From Nitrososphaerales archaeon (GTDB lineage: Archaea > Thermoproteota > Nitrososphaeria > Nitrososphaerales > UBA213): a stretch of DNA of 64,000 nucleotides. The notes beneath the pieces were generated by a model. It did not search any database and had not been told where the DNA came from. It saw only the letters and a list, made by a program, of their open reading frames with translations. Below are positions 35,135-45,590 of this stretch, in pieces. A program made the translations under genes and the position numbers. Each line of letters starts with the position of its first letter. Positions within the stretch are counted from its first letter, which is position 1. The stretch covers positions 448,001 to 512,000 of the forward strand of contig CBDAOC010000019.1 in NCBI GenBank assembly GCA_965197925.1, written 5' to 3'.

Positions 35135-36010
35135 GAAGTCATCCCAATACTCTCCAATACATCATAATCGACGAAATGATAACAAATGCCAGATAGTTTT
35201 GTGCATTCTTCTCATATCTGATCCTGGTTCTGTGGAACCCATTCTTCAACCAGGCAAAGAATCTCTCCACAACATAGCGCGTCTTGCCGTATAGGTATTG
35301 TTCTGTATTATCATTTTGTTGTTGTGTCTTACTGTTTTTTCTGTAAGGTATGCAGTCAGAGATTTTTCTTTTGGTGAGGTATTTCCTGATGAATTCTGCA
35401 TCATAGCCCTTGTCTGCTTGGCACCGCGCAATTTTTCTGATAGATCTCTCATCCAGATATTGTGAGATGCCATCCATCACGTCTACAAATCTGGGAGTCA
35501 TGCTGATTTGCAGGACATTACTACTGAGACTGGCAGTCCGTTTTGTTCCACCGCAACGTGTATTTTTGTGCCTGAAATCCTGTTGAATCCGTTGTATCCT
35601 ATGACGCTTCCCCTTTTTTGGCCGGAATTGATGACGAATCGACCGTTTTTTGCAGCTGCATCTTGCCTGATCTGTGGGCTGATTTGACTGCAGCGGAGAG
35701 GATATTCTTCCATATTCCACGTCGCTGCCAGTTCTGCAGTCTGCGGTGCGCAGTTGATTTGGAGCCGTACCTTTGTGACATCCCAGTCCACCTGCATCCT
35801 GTTATCCCGACAAACAGGATTCCGTTGACTGTCTTTCTGTCGTCTGCCCTTGGCCTTCCGGTTCTGGCTGGCTTGGGGAGATGCGGTGATATCATCTTCC
35901 ATTGTTCACCTGTTATCTCCTGAAATTTCATGTTCTGCTACAGGCAGCATTGCAAATAGATCCAAATGATCGTCAATTATTCACTAAATGATCAGTTTTG
36001 GGATCAGTTG
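35135..36010 (-). mobile_element. IS5-family (IS427-like) element, divergent relative of the 7511/44720 copies, frameshifted
   Basis: TGCRW, AAAAAAGGGG slippery site, ADKGYD, VVERFFAWLKNGF; imperfect ends GAAGTCATCCCAATAC / GTTTTGGGATCAGTTG. Confidence 0.88.
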
Positions 36011-38435: not shown

Positions 38436-39227
38436 TCACTTTTCTAAAACTTTTATTACTTTCTCATATTCCTTGAGTGTATTGATGGGTATCCACTTGC
38501 TGCTTGCAATAAAGAAACCTGAAAGTTTGCGTTCATTAGCCAATATTGGAAGAACGCCGGACTCCAACTCTACTGCGTCAATATCTTCCAAGTCAATCGC
38601 ATATTCGATAATTTCGTAGACCGCGGGCTCAAAGATGTAGATACCAATTGATGTTGGTTTGTGTATGAGTGGTTTCTCTTTGAAACCTAGGATCAATCCA
38701 TTGGGATCTACGCTTGCTTCCCCATATGGATATTCTGTACCAGGAACTAATACTATTGAACCTATACAACTACGGTGTATTACCGAGTCAAGATGAGACT
38801 TCAAAAAACGAGAGAAAATGTCTTTTTCTAATACAACATCATCAGGAAATAATATTAAACTCCTCTTTGTTCTATCAAATTTGTGGCTTTTTAATGCTTG
38901 TTTTATTGCTTTTCCCTTGCCCCAGTCGACATTTCCAATAGGATCAATACTAAATTCCGCCTGAATACCGTATTTTGAACCGTCGCCAATATGTTCCATC
39001 ACTAACTCGTGCTTGTGACCAACGAGGAATACAAATTGCTTAAATCCTTCCTTCGTTAAAGACTCAATTGTTCTATCAATCAACTTTTTTCCAGAAATTT
39101 CAAGAAGACATTTTGGTATGTCTATTCCCATCCTCTTTGCTTTTCCACCTGCTACGACTATAACCTGAGTCTTGTCTATTTCGTACTGCAACTTGCTAAA
39201 TTCCAGAATTAACCTCCTCCTTGACAA
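38436..39227 (-). CDS. Sugar-phosphate nucleotidyltransferase
   Basis: VAGGKAKRM...PKCLL, FKEKP; true start may be slightly downstream. Confidence 0.88.
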   Translation of the reverse strand: MSRRRLILEFSKLQYEIDKTQVIVVAGGKAKRMGIDIPKCLLEISGKKLIDRTIESLTKEGFKQFVFLVGHKHELVMEHIGDGSKYGIQAEFSIDPIGNVDWGKGKAIKQALKSHKFDRTKRSLILFPDDVVLEKDIFSRFLKSHLDSVIHRSCIGSIVLVPGTEYPYGEASVDPNGLILGFKEKPLIHKPTSIGIYIFEPAVYEIIEYAIDLEDIDAVELESGVLPILANERKLSGFFIASSKWIPINTLKEYEKVIKVLEK

Positions 39228-40262
39228 ATCCGAACCTTTTCATGAATTCTATATTACTCACAGCAGAAGCGTCAATCTCTTTTGCCAATGCAAGATAAAC
39301 ACTAGTAAAGTCACCTAAATAGCTTAAGGAAAGAAGCCTAGAGAGTTCAGATCTTCCTTCCCTCCAATACTCGCAAATCTTTGCCCCTTTTTGCTGGATC
39401 ATATATTCTGCAAGCATTAATTTTTTCTTGAAGACCTACTTCGTGTTCATAAATTAAATCTCTAAGTAAAATAAGCGCATAGTTTCCGTGTACATTTCCG
39501 ACCGAATCCCACGCCTCTATTTCATTATGAAGGAGTTCAGGAAAGATATCGTAGTAGCAATGAACCTTCGAATTTTCATTAAACTGTTGTTTCCATCGAA
39601 TTGCGACGCTATCTGTAAAATTCTGTTCCCCATAAACAATTGGGAATCTTCCTAGAAGTTCAAACGCAAGCGAGCGTGCAACATTTTTCGCTACGGGAAT
39701 CTCAGGCCCGCATTTTTCTTTGATATTGTTCAACACTTCTACAGTCTCAACCACATCATTCTCCACCCCCTTTAGAATACCTATTTTTTCCAGCATAAGT
39801 AAAATTGGAATCAACATGTATCCAAGTGATGCTCTACTATGCCCATTCTGTGGAACAGTCAAACACGGTATATGTCCCTCATAACATGAAGTTTTAACGC
39901 CTCTCCACCTGTCACTACAATAGTCTTCGCTCCAGCATGCTTACAGGACCATAAAGTGTCTAATGTCTCACGAGTTTTACCTGAGTAGGTTGCACCAATG
40001 ACAAGGCTATTTTCGTCAATATAAGAGGTGGAAGAAGATGTTTGTTTACATAAAGAGGTATTCTTGAATTTCGTAACAATACACGCATAAAGTCACCTAC
40101 TATACCAGAACCTCCCATTTCGCGAACAACAAGATTAGAAATTTTATCATAATTGAAACAAAGATCTAGCTCTTTTTTCATCTTTAACACTTCTAAGACC
40201 TGCGTTGGGAAATTCAATACTCTATCTAACATATCAGATTTTTCGACTGAAGCTAGTGTCAT
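39196..40262 (-). pseudogene. Bifunctional phosphoglucose/phosphomannose isomerase, multiply frameshifted
   Basis: MGGSGIVGD, RASLGY, RWKQQFNENSK, PELLHNEIE, GDFTSVYLA spread over several frames. Confidence 0.88.
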
Positions 40263-41147
40263 TATATGGTATGCTAGTGTGATAAAGCAAATAAACATCT
40301 ATGGACAATCGGAACCAATTTTCCGTATTTTAGATTGAGTAACATTGATTACATATAAAATTATATTTTTTTCTAGATCAATATTGCTTATTATATAAGC
40401 CGTGGTTCAATAGAATAATTCACAGAGAAAAGGGCTAGATATTGTGTCCAGTGAAACAAATCCTAAATAAATTCATAGGGTAAAGTAGTTACTTGTGTTC
40501 TCACGTTATTAGAGCGAAATACCATCTTCAAAGCATACGAGGAGGTCTGATAATTTTTCTTCTGAAGAATTTGTAACTAACCTTCTCCTCCACCAACACT
40601 TACTAACCCTGATTTCTTCCACCTGGCTTTATTTCTAATAATCGATTTGTCTCTAAATAATATTAATTTCTTGCGTGTAAATAAGATATTATACCAAAAT
40701 GTTTCCATTCTTGGGTATAACCCTATCCTTCAATGATAACATCGCTCCTGTAAGAAGTTAAACCTCCGAATACTCTCAACTATGTGATTTTTCGGGTTGA
40801 TTTCTCAATCATGAAAGTTATCAATATATTCAGGGCCTTCCAAATGGTATTTCTCTATAGTATAAGAAAAAAAATACATAATCAATTACAACAATAGCAA
40901 GATCATTCTATTAATCTAAACAAATCAGAGATTATCACAAAACAAGAGGAAATTTTTGAATAAACTACATCCTTTACAACAATGAGATTTAATTTAATTT
41001 AATATAACACAAGTTACATGCTACAGATACGGGTTCTGTCGGGTTAACGGGTGCTGGGATTTCAGGCATTTGGAACCGGATATCTGTACCTTATAATACC
41101 TAAAGGTACAAAGGAGGATTTATAATCTCTGCAAACACGCATCAGAC

Positions 41148-41246
41148 ATGATCAAAACACCATCATGGACAGACGAAGAACTAAAGAAAGCTGCAGCAGT
41201 AATCAAGGATTTTAAAGCAGGAAAAGTCAAGGTTCTAACAGAATAA
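41148..41246 (+). CDS. 32-aa micro-ORF
   Basis: MIKTPSWTDEELKKAAAVIKDFKAGKVKVLTE; TTTATAA about 25 nt upstream. Confidence 0.45.
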   Translation: MIKTPSWTDEELKKAAAVIKDFKAGKVKVLTE

Positions 41247-41256
41247 TTTCAAAGGT

Positions 41257-41427
41257 ATGGCTGACAATTACAGGATACCGGACAGTATCAACTATAACGG
41301 TTCCAAAGATTTCAAAGCAATCATTCACGAGTATGTGGAAAACAAAGAAAAATGTCCTGAACCCAACATTTGTAGGAACGATCATGAGATTGGGAAAGTT
41401 TACATCCCTCAAGAGGATGCTGTATGA
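41257..41427 (+). CDS. 56-aa micro-ORF
   Basis: MADNYRIPDSIN...IPQEDAV; ATGA overlap with the next ORF. Confidence 0.55.
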   Translation: MADNYRIPDSINYNGSKDFKAIIHEYVENKEKCPEPNICRNDHEIGKVYIPQEDAV

Positions 41428-41567
41428 GCATGAAAGTTGAAGGTGCGTATTGGAAACATGAATGTAATCGATGCGGTGAGATTTGGTACAGCAGGAACGA
41501 ATCCCCAAAGAACTGCAACAACAAGAAATGTAACTCGCCATACTGGAACAAGAAACGTGTAAGGTGA
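41424..41567 (+). CDS. 47-aa Zn-ribbon protein
   Basis: CNRCGEIW...PKNCNNKKCNSPYWNKKR. Confidence 0.7.
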   Translation: MSMKVEGAYWKHECNRCGEIWYSRNESPKNCNNKKCNSPYWNKKRVR

Positions 41568-41572
41568 TTTAT

Positions 41573-43264
41573 ATGACAAGGCACAGCAACAAGGCACAGC
41601 AACAAGGCACAGCAACAAGGCACAGCAACAAGGCACAGCAACAAGGCACAGCAACAACAAGGCACAGCAACAAGGCACAGCAACAAGGCACAGCAACAAG
41701 GCACAGCAACAAGGCACAGCAACAAGGCACAGCAACAAGGCACAGCAACAAGGCACAGCAACAAGGCACAGCAACAAGGCACAGCAACAAGGCACAGCAA
41801 CAAGGCACAGCAACAAGGCACAGCAACAAGGCACAGCAACAAGGCACAGCAACAAGGCACAGCAACAAGGCACAGCAACAAGGCACAGCAACAAGGCACA
41901 GCAACAAGGCACAGCAACAAGGCACAGCAACAAGGCACAGCAACAAGGCACAGCAACAAGGCACAGCAACACCTAACTGGGTCAACCGAACACTGTTTCA
42001 TGGGGACAATCTGAATTTTCTTCGTGCCATGAACTCCTGTACTGTAGACCTGATCGCAACCGATCCCCCGTTTAACAAGGGACGTGATTTTCACGCCACA
42101 CCTGACAGTCTTGTCAAAGGTGCGTCATTTCAGGACAGGTGGTCATGGGACAGGGATGTTCATCAGGAATGGGTAGATCAAATTACAGACGATCACCCAA
42201 ACGTCATAAATGTAATTCAGAGATCACGCTCAAGCTATGGCGATGACATGGGAGCGTTTCTATGTTTTATGGCAGTCAGACTGTTGGCCATGAGACGTAT
42301 CCTAAAGGATACAGGGTCGATATATCTGCACTGCGATCCTACAGCATCGCATTATCTGAAGGAACTGATGGATTCCATCTTTAACAGTAGGAACTTTCAA
42401 AATGAGATCATATGGCATTATTATAACATCGCAAACGTTGCCAGAAGACATTTTGGACGCAAGCATGATGTGATATTATTATATTCCAAAAACAAACACG
42501 TCTTTAACTGGGATGATATGCGTGAGCCATACGACAAAAACAGTAATTGGGTAAAACACTATGAATCATACGGGGATGACCGCTACAAACCTGACAAACG
42601 TGGCAAGCTGATGCATGATGTTTGGAGGATGCCTATCAATAACATGGCAAAGGAGCGTACAGGATACCCTACACAGAAACCACTGGCGTTATATGAAAGG
42701 ATGATAAAGGCATCAAGCAAAAAGGGTGATATTGTATTAGACCCATTTGCCGGGTGTGCCACAACCTGTGTAGCTGCAGAGAGACTTGGGAGGCAATGGG
42801 TTGGAATTGACATCTGGGACAAAGCACATGAGACAGTCATAGACAGACTGAAAAAGCAAAATCACCTAAGTATTGATGGTAATCGTAATGATATTCTGTT
42901 TAGCGAGGGTGTCATGACATATACCTCAGAATTGCCCAAAAGAACCGATGGCGGTGAAACTGCATCCCCACACCTAAAGACAAAACAAAATGTGTTGGAA
43001 CCACAGGATAAGAAGATGAGCAGGGCCGAAATGATGCAATACTTGTTAGAACAGCACGGCTACAAGTGTCAGAGATGTGATAGAATGTTTGACGATTCAA
43101 GATATTTGGAGCTTGATCACAACACTCCACGTGCTGACGGTGGAATCAACCACATCTCAAACAGGATATTGTTGTGCAGCCCATGTAACAAGCTAAAAAG
43201 ACACTACTATACGCTGTCAGGTCTGAGACGTGAGAATGTAAGGCATGAATATATGGCAAGATAA
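41573..43264 (+). CDS. Beta-class N6A/N4C DNA methyltransferase fused to a C-terminal HNH nuclease, with an N-terminal repeat tract
   Basis: GDNL, DPPF (motif IV), YPTQKP, LDPFAGCATT (motif I); CQRC...LDHNTPRADGGINHISNRILLCSPCNKLK; AGGTGA SD before ATG 41573. Confidence 0.92.
   Translation: MTRHSNKAQQQGTATRHSNKAQQQGTATTRHSNKAQQQGTATRHSNKAQQQGTATRHSNKAQQQGTATRHSNKAQQQGTATRHSNKAQQQGTATRHSNKAQQQGTATRHSNKAQQQGTATRHSNKAQQQGTATPNWVNRTLFHGDNLNFLRAMNSCTVDLIATDPPFNKGRDFHATPDSLVKGASFQDRWSWDRDVHQEWVDQITDDHPNVINVIQRSRSSYGDDMGAFLCFMAVRLLAMRRILKDTGSIYLHCDPTASHYLKELMDSIFNSRNFQNEIIWHYYNIANVARRHFGRKHDVILLYSKNKHVFNWDDMREPYDKNSNWVKHYESYGDDRYKPDKRGKLMHDVWRMPINNMAKERTGYPTQKPLALYERMIKASSKKGDIVLDPFAGCATTCVAAERLGRQWVGIDIWDKAHETVIDRLKKQNHLSIDGNRNDILFSEGVMTYTSELPKRTDGGETASPHLKTKQNVLEPQDKKMSRAEMMQYLLEQHGYKCQRCDRMFDDSRYLELDHNTPRADGGINHISNRILLCSPCNKLKRHYYTLSGLRRENVRHEYMAR
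41576..41968 (+). repeat. Tandem repeat: 30 x 13 bp ACAAGGCACAGCA plus one 3-nt ACA insertion
   Basis: 6 units (41576-41653), ACA, 24 units (41657-41968); 393 nt in total, in frame. Confidence 0.97.
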
Positions 43265-43839
43265 TATATGCCAGCACCCGTTAACCCGACAGAACCATAA
43301 AAAGAAATATAATTATATAGGTAGGTCTCTTCAAAATATTATCACTTTTCTACAAAAAAATAAAGATGTTCGTACCGAGCACTATCACTAGAGAAAATCT
43401 GTCAGTCAGTTTCGTACCCCTTCTCAAATCTAGCATAGAAGGGAAGTAGTGCATTTTTACATCGAAGATAATGCGTATTTCCAGATGATTAATATTTGAG
43501 AAAACTCAAACAAAAGCGGAAAAACTTCTAAATTAAGAGTTGATCAACAATTTCACCTTATTGAATTGGTATTTATAAACACCTAGGGCCTGTCTCAATC
43601 AATTTATGAAGGAAAATCAGGTCCTTAAATAAGGAAAAAATTAACGAGTTCTAACCTTTTAGGCCTAGAGGAAATAAATTGAGCAAACTCTACTAGATTT
43701 ACACAAATATTCGTTTCATTTACCATTAAAGCAACACATTCTAGGTTTTATAAAGCCAAGCTTGTTAGTTTACCTTCATCCTAATGTGATACTTCTTGAC
43801 CAAATAATTTAATAGATCGAATACGACTTTATAAAATCG

Positions 43840-44259
43840 TTGACAATTGCGAAAAGTGCGATTTTATCAATCGCGTTAGTATTTGTATTGTTTCCATATA
43901 TGTTAGCTCAGGGAGAGTCTGATTATGGAATCGTGGAGGCAACTGGTTTAGTATTGTTTGAAGATTCTCCGAATTCTGGACTTTGGGCAGCTGAAGCAGA
44001 TTTTTATTCCCATCGGGGAGACGTTATAACAGTATATCAAAATGACGCAAGCGATATTTTTATAGTGACAATAAAAGGAGATGATATTGCATTTGAAGAA
44101 GATGAATTGATAATTTCCGGAATAGGTTTCATTACTAAAAATGGTGTCCTGCTTGAAGAGGGTGATGGCAATTCCACAATGAACAAAAACGGTATGGAGC
44201 TAAAGATCAATGGAAATATTGTTGTGACTGGACAGACAATTTCTTTTACAAAAAATTAA
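43840..44259 (+). CDS. Hypothetical secreted protein
   Basis: Signal-peptide-like N-terminus, acidic beta-rich body. Confidence 0.65.
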   Translation: MTIAKSAILSIALVFVLFPYMLAQGESDYGIVEATGLVLFEDSPNSGLWAAEADFYSHRGDVITVYQNDASDIFIVTIKGDDIAFEEDELIISGIGFITKNGVLLEEGDGNSTMNKNGMELKINGNIVVTGQTISFTKN

Positions 44260-44719
44260 TTGGGATTCGTTGATAACTGATAGTTGCTCTCAGTACAGAT
44301 CATAAAACATAGTGGTAGATTAGAATAATAATTAGAGATATTATCAAAGTAACCATTACGAATTAACTCATTTATTATAGTACTTAATTTAGTCTTAATC
44401 GTAACGGTGTCGATAGTAGGCTTTCTTGTAAATCTTCAATACAACTGAAATGATTCTAGTATTTTATCGATAATAGATTTATTACTACAATATTCTGGAT
44501 TGGAACACCTAATATTCCCTTGAGGCAGGGTCAATAATTAATTGACAAAATTTTCAAACAATGGTCATAAAAATCAACATGTATTGAATTGAATTTCTAG
44601 AGCACATATTCAAATGTAATTTCCTATTTATCATATATGTTAATAATTTCTCGTGACAATAGTCGTGTCATGTTGCATCCAGATATTTGTGAGACCTTCT
44701 ACAAAATTAAAAATAATGT

Positions 44720-45590
44720 CAACTCATCTCAAAACTAACCATTTAGACAATTTTTAGCGACCATTTAGATCCATGAATAGCGACATCTAAAATTATTTTA
44801 TGAAATTCCAAGAATTATCAGACAAACAGTGGAGTATGATGGAATCACACATACCACCACATGCAAAAACTGGCAGGCCTAGGGATTATGATAGAAAAAT
44901 CATTAACGGAATAATCCATGTTCTAACTACTGGATGCCGATGGGACGATATGCCAAAAAGATATGGTGATGATTCTACTGCAAACAGAAGGTTAAACAAA
45001 TGGCAACAAAAAGGAATCTGGAAAAAGATTCTATCACGTACTATTCACTCAGCACATAAATCTGGCAAAATTAATCTACAAATATCAGTTGACTCTTCAT
45101 CCATTCCTGATAAAAAAGGGGCAATGTAACTGGATATAATGGATTCAAGAGAATAACAGGTACAAAAATACATGCCGCAGTAGAGAGTAACGGATTTCCA
45201 ATATCCATACTGTTGAGTCCAGCAAATGAACATGACAGTACAAAATGCATGGATGTTACAGGATCAATTTCAGACTATCTTGATGATGATTCAATACAAC
45301 AGATAGAACCAGTTTATGCAGACAAAATGATGCAAAATACATCAGAATGTATTTGTGGGATAGAAATATTGCATGTTGCATCCCATACAAAATAAATTCC
45401 AAGTTCATCTTGCAAAATAATGATTGCAAACATTACAGCAAGACAAGATTTGTAGTTGAGAGATTCCTTGCATGGCTCAAGAATGGATTTCACAGAACAA
45501 GAATCAGATATGAAAGAACGGCAGAAAACTACCTGGCATTTGTTAATCTTGCATCATTTTTGATGTATTGTAGGGTTTTGAGATGAGTTG
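44720..45590 (+). mobile_element. IS5-family (IS427-like) element, copy 2, near-identical to 7511-8381
   Basis: Same 871-bp length and 16-bp TIR, same broken ORFs; only about 3 substitutions noticed. Confidence 0.95.

Follow-up and report, generated by a model that had tools for sequence, protein, structure and literature searches.

A probable phase-variable methylase-HNH nuclease fusion with a 13-bp repeat tract in an ammonia-oxidising archaeon

Our analysis points to a probable phase-variable single-chain methylase-nuclease in an archaeon, as judged from its sequence. The gene encodes a beta-class DNA amino-methyltransferase fused to an HNH nuclease domain, and its start codon is followed by a long tandem array of a 13-bp unit. 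We consider it likely that this tract is a simple-sequence-repeat contingency locus that switches the fusion ON and OFF. The relevant features of the window, by which we mean the whole 64,000-nucleotide stretch of DNA analysed, are collected in Table 1.

Table 1. Coordinates of the methylase-HNH gene, its repeat tract and the surrounding element in the window
Feature	Position	Strand	Evidence or remark
Left terminal inverted repeat, 29 bp, IS6/IS240-type	41032..41060	+	97% complementary to 43268-43296
32-aa ORF, possibly no gene	41148..41246	+	Without NCBIfam match; single copy in genome
56-aa ORF	41257..41427	+	No match above Pfam or NCBIfam cut-off
47-aa Cys4 zinc-ribbon-like ORF	41424..41567	+	Overlap of its stop with the methylase's putative ribosome-binding site
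Shine-Dalgarno-like GGTGA and start ATG (41573)	41563..41575	+	Sequence; Shine-Dalgarno role presumed
Candidate switch tract, 30 x 13-bp unit + ACA at 41654, ON allele	41576..41968	+	TRF, sequence; stop-free in all frames
Beta-class amino-methyltransferase	41969..42835	+	Pfam, PADLOC MTase_II best, AlphaFold pLDDT 80.5, Foldseek
First strand and GD	42002-42007	+	Conserved columns, 109 sequences
DPPF motif	42062-42073	+	Invariant in 109 sequences
Target-recognition region, apparently swappable	about 42413-42658	+	Region swaps among relatives
DPFAG motif	42740-42754	+	Invariant or nearly so in 109 sequences
Zinc-binding HNH nuclease domain (ORF end 43264)	43067..43198	+	Pfam HNH, invariant residues
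Right terminal inverted repeat	43268..43296	-	Contigs in runs X10 and X11 stop matching at 43296

The tract lies directly 3' of the ATG and consists of 30 exact copies of the 13-mer and one extra ACA. Its length of 393 nt is divisible by 3, and the assembled allele is in frame (ON), with an ORF of 563 aa (41573-43264) that leaves a body of 431 aa once the tract is subtracted. TRF assigns the array a period of 13, 30.2 copies and a score of 765, the highest of the four arrays in the window, and all 30 occurrences of the unit in the 2.9-Mb genome fall within this tract. Alleles constructed in silico with 0, 3 or 6 units are full length, those with 1, 4 or 7 units stop after 7, 20 or 33 aa, and those with 2 or 5 units stop after 24 or 37 aa. 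The gene therefore has a non-triplet repeat unit inside its reading frame, one of the features by which phase-variable restriction-modification genes of the simple-sequence-repeat type are recognised. An exact recount and the in-silico alleles agree with a preliminary description of this DNA, which had claimed 30 units and one ACA behind the ATG, a unit that cannot create a stop, a frame kept only by copy numbers divisible by 3, and an assembled allele that is ON. That description had missed the terminal inverted repeats and the three small upstream ORFs.

Pfam detects N6_N4_Mtase (E 3e-52) and HNH (E 8e-10) in one polypeptide, an arrangement expected of single-chain (Type IIG/IIC) restriction-modification enzymes, and its domain content suggests that the product is most likely a single-chain restriction-modification protein. 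The catalytic DPPF-type motif precedes the target-recognition region and the SAM-binding motif, which is the order that defines the beta class. Among 109 aligned sequences, G12 and D13 of the body are at least 90% conserved, and DPPF (residues 32-35) and D258, F260 and G262 of DPFAG (258-262) are invariant; in the HNH domain, C367, C370, D383, H384, N398, C403 and N407 are invariant in 109/109. The roles given here to the GD, DPPF and DPFAG motifs are those usually assigned to them in methylases. Foldseek matches of the AlphaFold model (E 1e-17) include CcrM, M.BceJIV, M.RsrI and M.MboIIA, which have the same fold and motif order as the methylase described here but carry no HNH domain and share only 23-27% identity with it. 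The HNH domain itself has PDB sequence matches to Cas9/IscB-type HNH domains and to McrA; a structure model of this domain alone, made with no alignment, was set aside (pLDDT 51.6). The genome also encodes a stand-alone protein of 148 aa (G000 C16:86607-87053) with 40% identity over 105 aa to the C-terminal HNH part of the fusion. Close relatives are identical at 111-115 of 128 positions in the N-terminal part and at 77-78 of 86 in the HNH part, and with this chassis identity of roughly 90%, the target-recognition region is identical at 81 of 82 positions to that of P0002 and at 28-34 of 82 to those of P0003, P0004, P0017 and P0020. Because the middle region is either near-identical or very different on a conserved chassis, the pattern looks like an exchange of target-recognition regions.

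Activity from a start downstream of the tract had been named in the preliminary description as an objection to a switch. A sequence scan found no in-frame ATG, GTG or TTG from the end of the tract up to Met21 of the body, and no such codon preserves the first conserved strand. Residues 1-20 of the body form a confidently modelled strand and helix (AlphaFold pLDDT 91-93) and include the GD pair, which in beta-class enzymes we take to contact the cofactor. Rescue of OFF alleles from an internal Met is thus unlikely, since there is no start before Met21 and a start at Met21 would delete the strand, the helix and the GD pair.

The preliminary description had proposed a search for orthologues with other unit counts and had recognised that an invariant tract would speak against switching; the tract is not invariant. 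The 90% cluster of the protein has five members, three of which are full length with identical 431-aa bodies, and in these three assemblies (contigs of 0.95, 2.63 and 0.59 Mb) the body is preceded by 9, 27 and 30 (+3 nt) units, the counts of 9 and 27 being deduced from peptides and not from DNA. Relatives carry 2 or 3 units. P0004 and P0140 begin with three imperfect units and P0003 with a 9-residue variant; P0140 equals P0020, which was called from an internal Met, plus 34 residues. In run X10, a contig of depth 427 is 94% identical to the window (23 differences in 382 nt, 0 gaps) and has the same context of the methylase ATG, and in it the upstream sequence and ATG of the window itself are followed directly by position 41943, which leaves exactly 2 units, out of frame. 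A contig of run X11, compared from its first matching letter onwards, also starts at 41943, the same base as the X10 join. This comparison covered the assembled contigs of 4 of 22 runs over 41860-44600. An OFF allele is therefore present in a 94%-identical relative, and none of the three same-gene assemblies is OFF. The 2-unit allele may represent a near-stable OFF state instead of a fast switch, and we infer, as a plausible history, that long tracts grew out of an imperfect seed of two units. Seventeen relatives among 147 proteins share the N-terminal motif, of which 6 are complete at the N-terminus and 11 begin with an internal Met; some of these internal starts may be gene-caller choices or contig breaks. 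Six of 401 GTDB genomes of family f12 match the gene, and the 13-bp unit is absent from all six.

The first alternative to be weighed is that the tract expanded neutrally under selection to stay ON, with OFF alleles as dead ends or pseudogenes, an account that we regard as improbable though not negligible. The three full-length assemblies with the same gene all have it in frame (a chance of 1 in 27 for random phases), and an exact look-up, which variants may escape, found no record of the internal-Met product in the protein collection; both results count against frequent OFF majorities in this species. Many long arrays are present elsewhere in the genome, including intergenic ones and some in transposase- or integrase-like remnants (57 perfect arrays, of which 21 have non-triplet, multi-base units and lie, with few exceptions, outside recognisable genes or within mobile remnants; they seem to be neutral), and NucS and MutL domains were not found in the 98.7%-complete genome, so that expansion of the tract needs no adaptive story. 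However, the period is 13 and not 39, one relative has an enzyme in both an ON and an apparently OFF form, and homologues from eight phyla show unrelated non-triplet repeats recurring at this 5' position.

This recurrence was found in a GTDB homologue survey of the best 80 of 142 loci. Fourteen of these 80, from 8 phyla, have a non-triplet repeat <=150 nt before the conserved RTLFHGD, compared with 5 of the 219 starts of other genes at these loci (Fisher p 1.3e-5), a count that includes homopolymers of 9 or more under a threshold chosen after a first look, and in which kin are not independent. By a stricter rule, the best 80 of 142 loci include 9 in which a perfect multi-base repeat lies no more than 150 nt ahead of the conserved start motif; its units measure 4, 4, 7 and (six times) 8 bases. 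Loci that turned up again in further searches were counted once. None of the 14 tracts contains a stop or is followed by an in-frame start, and by the chosen start codon 9 are OFF, 3 are ON and 2 are unclear, which is near the 2:1 random expectation. On a quick tree built from the first 150 aa, from which L045 was left out as truncated, the repeat-bearing homologues are scattered, the repeat label requiring 13 changes compared with 14.0 when shuffled, and strongly supported branches force at least 3 changes. Five further loci have intragenic G/C runs, at which the frame is broken in three cases, and a 5' C9 is present in one of nine metagenome loci. It is the family-wide position bias that tips the balance from neutral expansion towards a switch. 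As to the ON/OFF frameshift switch originally proposed, variable tract length, the OFF allele in a close relative, the recurrence across the family and the lack of a later start codon that would spare the first strand stand in its favour, and the three in-frame same-gene assemblies stand against it.

Several other loci of the survey have repeats in different positions. In L052, L074 and L080, which represent at least two lineages, a G/C run and a frameshift fall in the same loop just before DPFAG. In the distant archaeal homologue L109 (G324), a methylase-HNH protein by Pfam, a short ORF upstream contains a 7-bp x 52 array, and in the distant archaeal homologues L113 and L114 (G327) arrays of a 19-bp unit (x 3 and x 10) begin or end about 80 nt upstream; these three were excluded from the in-frame count, as a stop separates tract and gene, and are possible promoter- or coupling-type switches. 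In L111/L149 (G366), a homologous methylase directly follows a tRNA-like sequence beside a short G run, without a clear start codon. Nine of the best 80 homologues (L033, L034, L043, L046, L049, L054, L055, L059 and L061) are on one Dehalococcoidia chromosome.

If the tract acts as a switch, gain or loss of 13-bp units by slippage or unequal exchange would move the frame, so that one copy number in three would yield a complete enzyme whose N-terminal tail is disordered, and every other number a short peptide. The methylase would recognise and methylate its site via the swappable target-recognition region, and the fused HNH domain would cut unmethylated DNA. Because both activities share one frame, switching OFF should not be self-lethal; survival on unmethylated DNA upon a change from OFF to ON is left unexplained by the switch model. 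The population would hedge between defended, methylated cells and permissive, unmethylated cells, and the gene travels on a non-autonomous IS6-type element. The model presumes high-rate reversible switching, both enzyme activities and a selective benefit.

A second alternative shares the switch with our preferred explanation and differs on its purpose: switching would serve gene regulation (a phasevarion) or methylation only, and the HNH domain would act without restriction of foreign DNA. The analogy with mod genes, which have a 5' repeat and swapped target-recognition regions, is consistent with this, as is a study in which switching of Cj0031 alters transcripts (PMC4889913). We nevertheless find it distinctly unlikely, as the catalytic and zinc residues of the HNH domain are invariant in 109/109 sequences and the patchy, mobile distribution of the gene (0/8 own-family genomes) suits a defence gene.

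An assembly artefact behind the tract or its length, against which the preliminary description had cautioned, is very improbable. Split housekeeping genes in the window suggest indel errors or decay, as in the phosphoglucose-isomerase-like gene that is divided over three ORFs at 39196-40298, and collapsed repeats are a known problem according to passages of a survey of mod genes (PMC5909438). However, two other long-contig assemblies encode the same repeat peptide with an identical body, which largely refutes such an artefact, and relatives have 2-3 units; what assembly error could alter is the exact counts and the extra ACA, and not whether the tract exists. It is extremely improbable that the near-perfect inverted repeats at both ends make the 2.27-kb segment an invertible switch to which the tract is incidental, since the repeats match IS240-type transposon ends, no invertase lies inside, and a contig of run X6 crosses the right repeat unbroken into the same flank with 0 differences (contigs drop rare variants).

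The inverted repeats enclose a segment of 2265 bp with the three small ORFs and the fusion. Its G+C content is 40-44%, compared with 33-35% in the flanks. Of 401 genomes from the order, 16 contain the terminal repeat motif; family f12 accounts for 15 of these, and the motif is found in 0/8 genomes of its own family; the methylase protein is likewise found in 0/8 own-family genomes and has matches in 8 of 400 other genomes of the order. The same terminal repeat bounds IS240-type transposase elements with cargo (L145, L147 and G000 C20:477853-480005) or TnpB-like genes. From the shared IS240-type ends, the patchy distribution and the G+C contrast, we conclude that the segment is a horizontally acquired, non-autonomous IS6-type element. 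Unlike its IS6/IS240 sisters in related archaea, which carry a transposase and cargo or TnpB-like genes, this copy has no transposase between its inverted repeats (5 matches over the PF13610 cut-off are elsewhere in the genome) and no target-site duplication was seen at its ends, and its cargo is the probably repeat-switched methylase-nuclease; an empty-site comparison used 30 relatives, which are too distant. The terminal repeat was found in 0 viral contigs. A casposon reading of the inverted repeats was rejected.

Upstream of the methylase, translational coupling with the zinc-ribbon-like ORF is possible. In L066 an ORF with 43% identity to it immediately precedes the homologous methylase, and a weak relative (tblastn E 0.28) lies on contig C1 between an IS240-type transposase and an HsdM-like gene. 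A promoter scan gave 2 sites versus 1.5 expected, for a promoter type that is wrong for archaea.

Other elements with related ends were observed. In family f12, TnpB/Cas12f-like genes stand alone between the same IS6-type repeats (L143:1501-2780, L135:1501-2765 and L137), and those of L143 and L135 match Pfam Cas12f1-like_TNB; IS6-type ends are an unusual carrier for TnpB. An IS240-type transposase, a small ORF and Type I restriction-modification-subunit-like genes occur together in L147:156-4956 (G033) and in G000 C1:83900-88700, the latter unit being present as two inverted copies that differ by one 24-bp repeat unit between the transposase and the zinc-ribbon gene. The C20 element is the second inverted-repeat-bounded element of the genome and holds an IS240-type transposase in split form together with two passenger ORFs.

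That repeats drive the phase variation of methylases in host-adapted bacteria is textbook knowledge. Among single-chain enzymes, Eco57I and MmeI have an N-terminal PD-(D/E)XK nuclease and a gamma-class methylase, whereas in the protein described here a beta-class fold comes first and the HNH domain last. According to passages of the study of Cj0031, a Type IIG enzyme of Campylobacter jejuni, a G9 tract switches a single-frame methylase-nuclease, and this is proven (PMC4889913). In both proteins methylase and nuclease share one frame and would be frameshifted together, the tract is present in some alleles, and the recognition region varies. Cj0031, however, is an Eco57I/TaqI-like protein of 1243 aa with an internal G9 tract, whereas the present archaeal protein, known from its sequence, has a core of 431-432 aa, a beta-class methylase first, a C-terminal HNH domain and a 13-bp unit at codon 2. 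In the consulted parts of a survey of units of 1-9 nt, the proportion of Type III mod genes with repeat tracts is 17.4% (PMC5909438), which compares with 14/80 (17.5%) of the best homologues here at similar thresholds. Like these genes, ours has a beta-class-like methylase, a 5' non-triplet tract and swapped target-recognition regions; unlike them, it has a fused nuclease, a better PADLOC score for MTase_II than for MTase_III and a unit longer than 1-9 nt, and its element, made up of three small ORFs and the fusion, has no res gene, nor is a res-sized ORF nearby. The gene would work like Cj0031 and mod and is a member of neither family.

Supplementary tables of repeat surveys give enzyme names only, and archaeal entries were identified by enzyme prefix. 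The prefix S.Mja presumably denotes Methanocaldococcus. In the accessible portions of these sources, M.CsyAORFQP is listed in Supplementary Tables 4 and 5 of the Type III survey, the word "archaea" being absent from its main text (PMC5909438), the prefix CsyA stands for Cenarchaeum symbiosum A (PMC11033074), and S.Mja entries with (CCCT)3 appear in the supplement of a Type I survey (PMC7383803). The idea that this is the first archaeal restriction-modification gene with a simple sequence repeat was therefore rejected. The view of the locus as an archaeal equivalent of bacterial switches holds for the host and must be qualified by M.CsyAORFQP, a precedent listed without discussion there, and the unit is unusually long only relative to surveys of units of 1-9 nt and not beyond them. 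In the open literature (titles, abstracts, passages and, in part, supplements), we found no paper that deals with an archaeal methylase switched by repeats or with this family of methylase-HNH proteins.

The locus contributes an archaeal host, the 13-bp unit, the length series of 2 to 30 units and the IS6-type carrier. Passages of a 2025 review describe the archaea as still to be surveyed for phase variation (PMC11868660), and in the portions of the survey supplements consulted, archaeal candidates are listed and not discussed or tested there. The locus is a concrete archaeal test case that existing long reads could answer, as homopolymer error does not disturb the counting of a 13-bp unit on single molecules, which also reveal their methylation. 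Switches of this kind escape surveys that stop at units of 9 nt, and the locus draws attention to a large single-chain methylase-HNH family. If true, a phasevarion would split an archaeal population into methylated and unmethylated cells that differ in expression and virus sensitivity. We think it rather unlikely that this picture holds in full, with active flipping, up to about 13 family-wide origins (8 phyla, units of 1 to 13 bp) and the birth of the tract seen as 2, 3, 9, 27 and 30 units.

The host is an ammonia-oxidising archaeon, since its genome encodes archaeal AmoA (PF12942, E 8e-111; 0/14 control genomes). A sponge habitat is suggested only by the host names of homologues, such as "Cenarchaeum symbiont of Oopsacas minuta" and Poriferisodalaceae; passages of one study report that restriction systems and transposases are enriched in sponge Thaumarchaeota (PMC7848895). 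Two small contigs of G000 may reflect contamination, in keeping with the 5.4% estimate: C9 has G homopolymer and (AG)n runs, and C10 carries a different-looking methylase. G000 is unusually rich in arrays. Long perfect or near-perfect arrays elsewhere in it (C19:414273-414843, C20:869679-870574, C20:958098-958625, C20:117992-118320, C20:284646-285391 and C1:16183-16476) have units of 16, 10, 29, 32, 28 and 34 bp in up to about 90 copies and are mostly intergenic or beside IS elements. The window also contains two multi-copy IS5-like elements with split transposase frames (35139-35931 and 44800-45586), the second of which has at least 8 more near-identical end copies in the genome.
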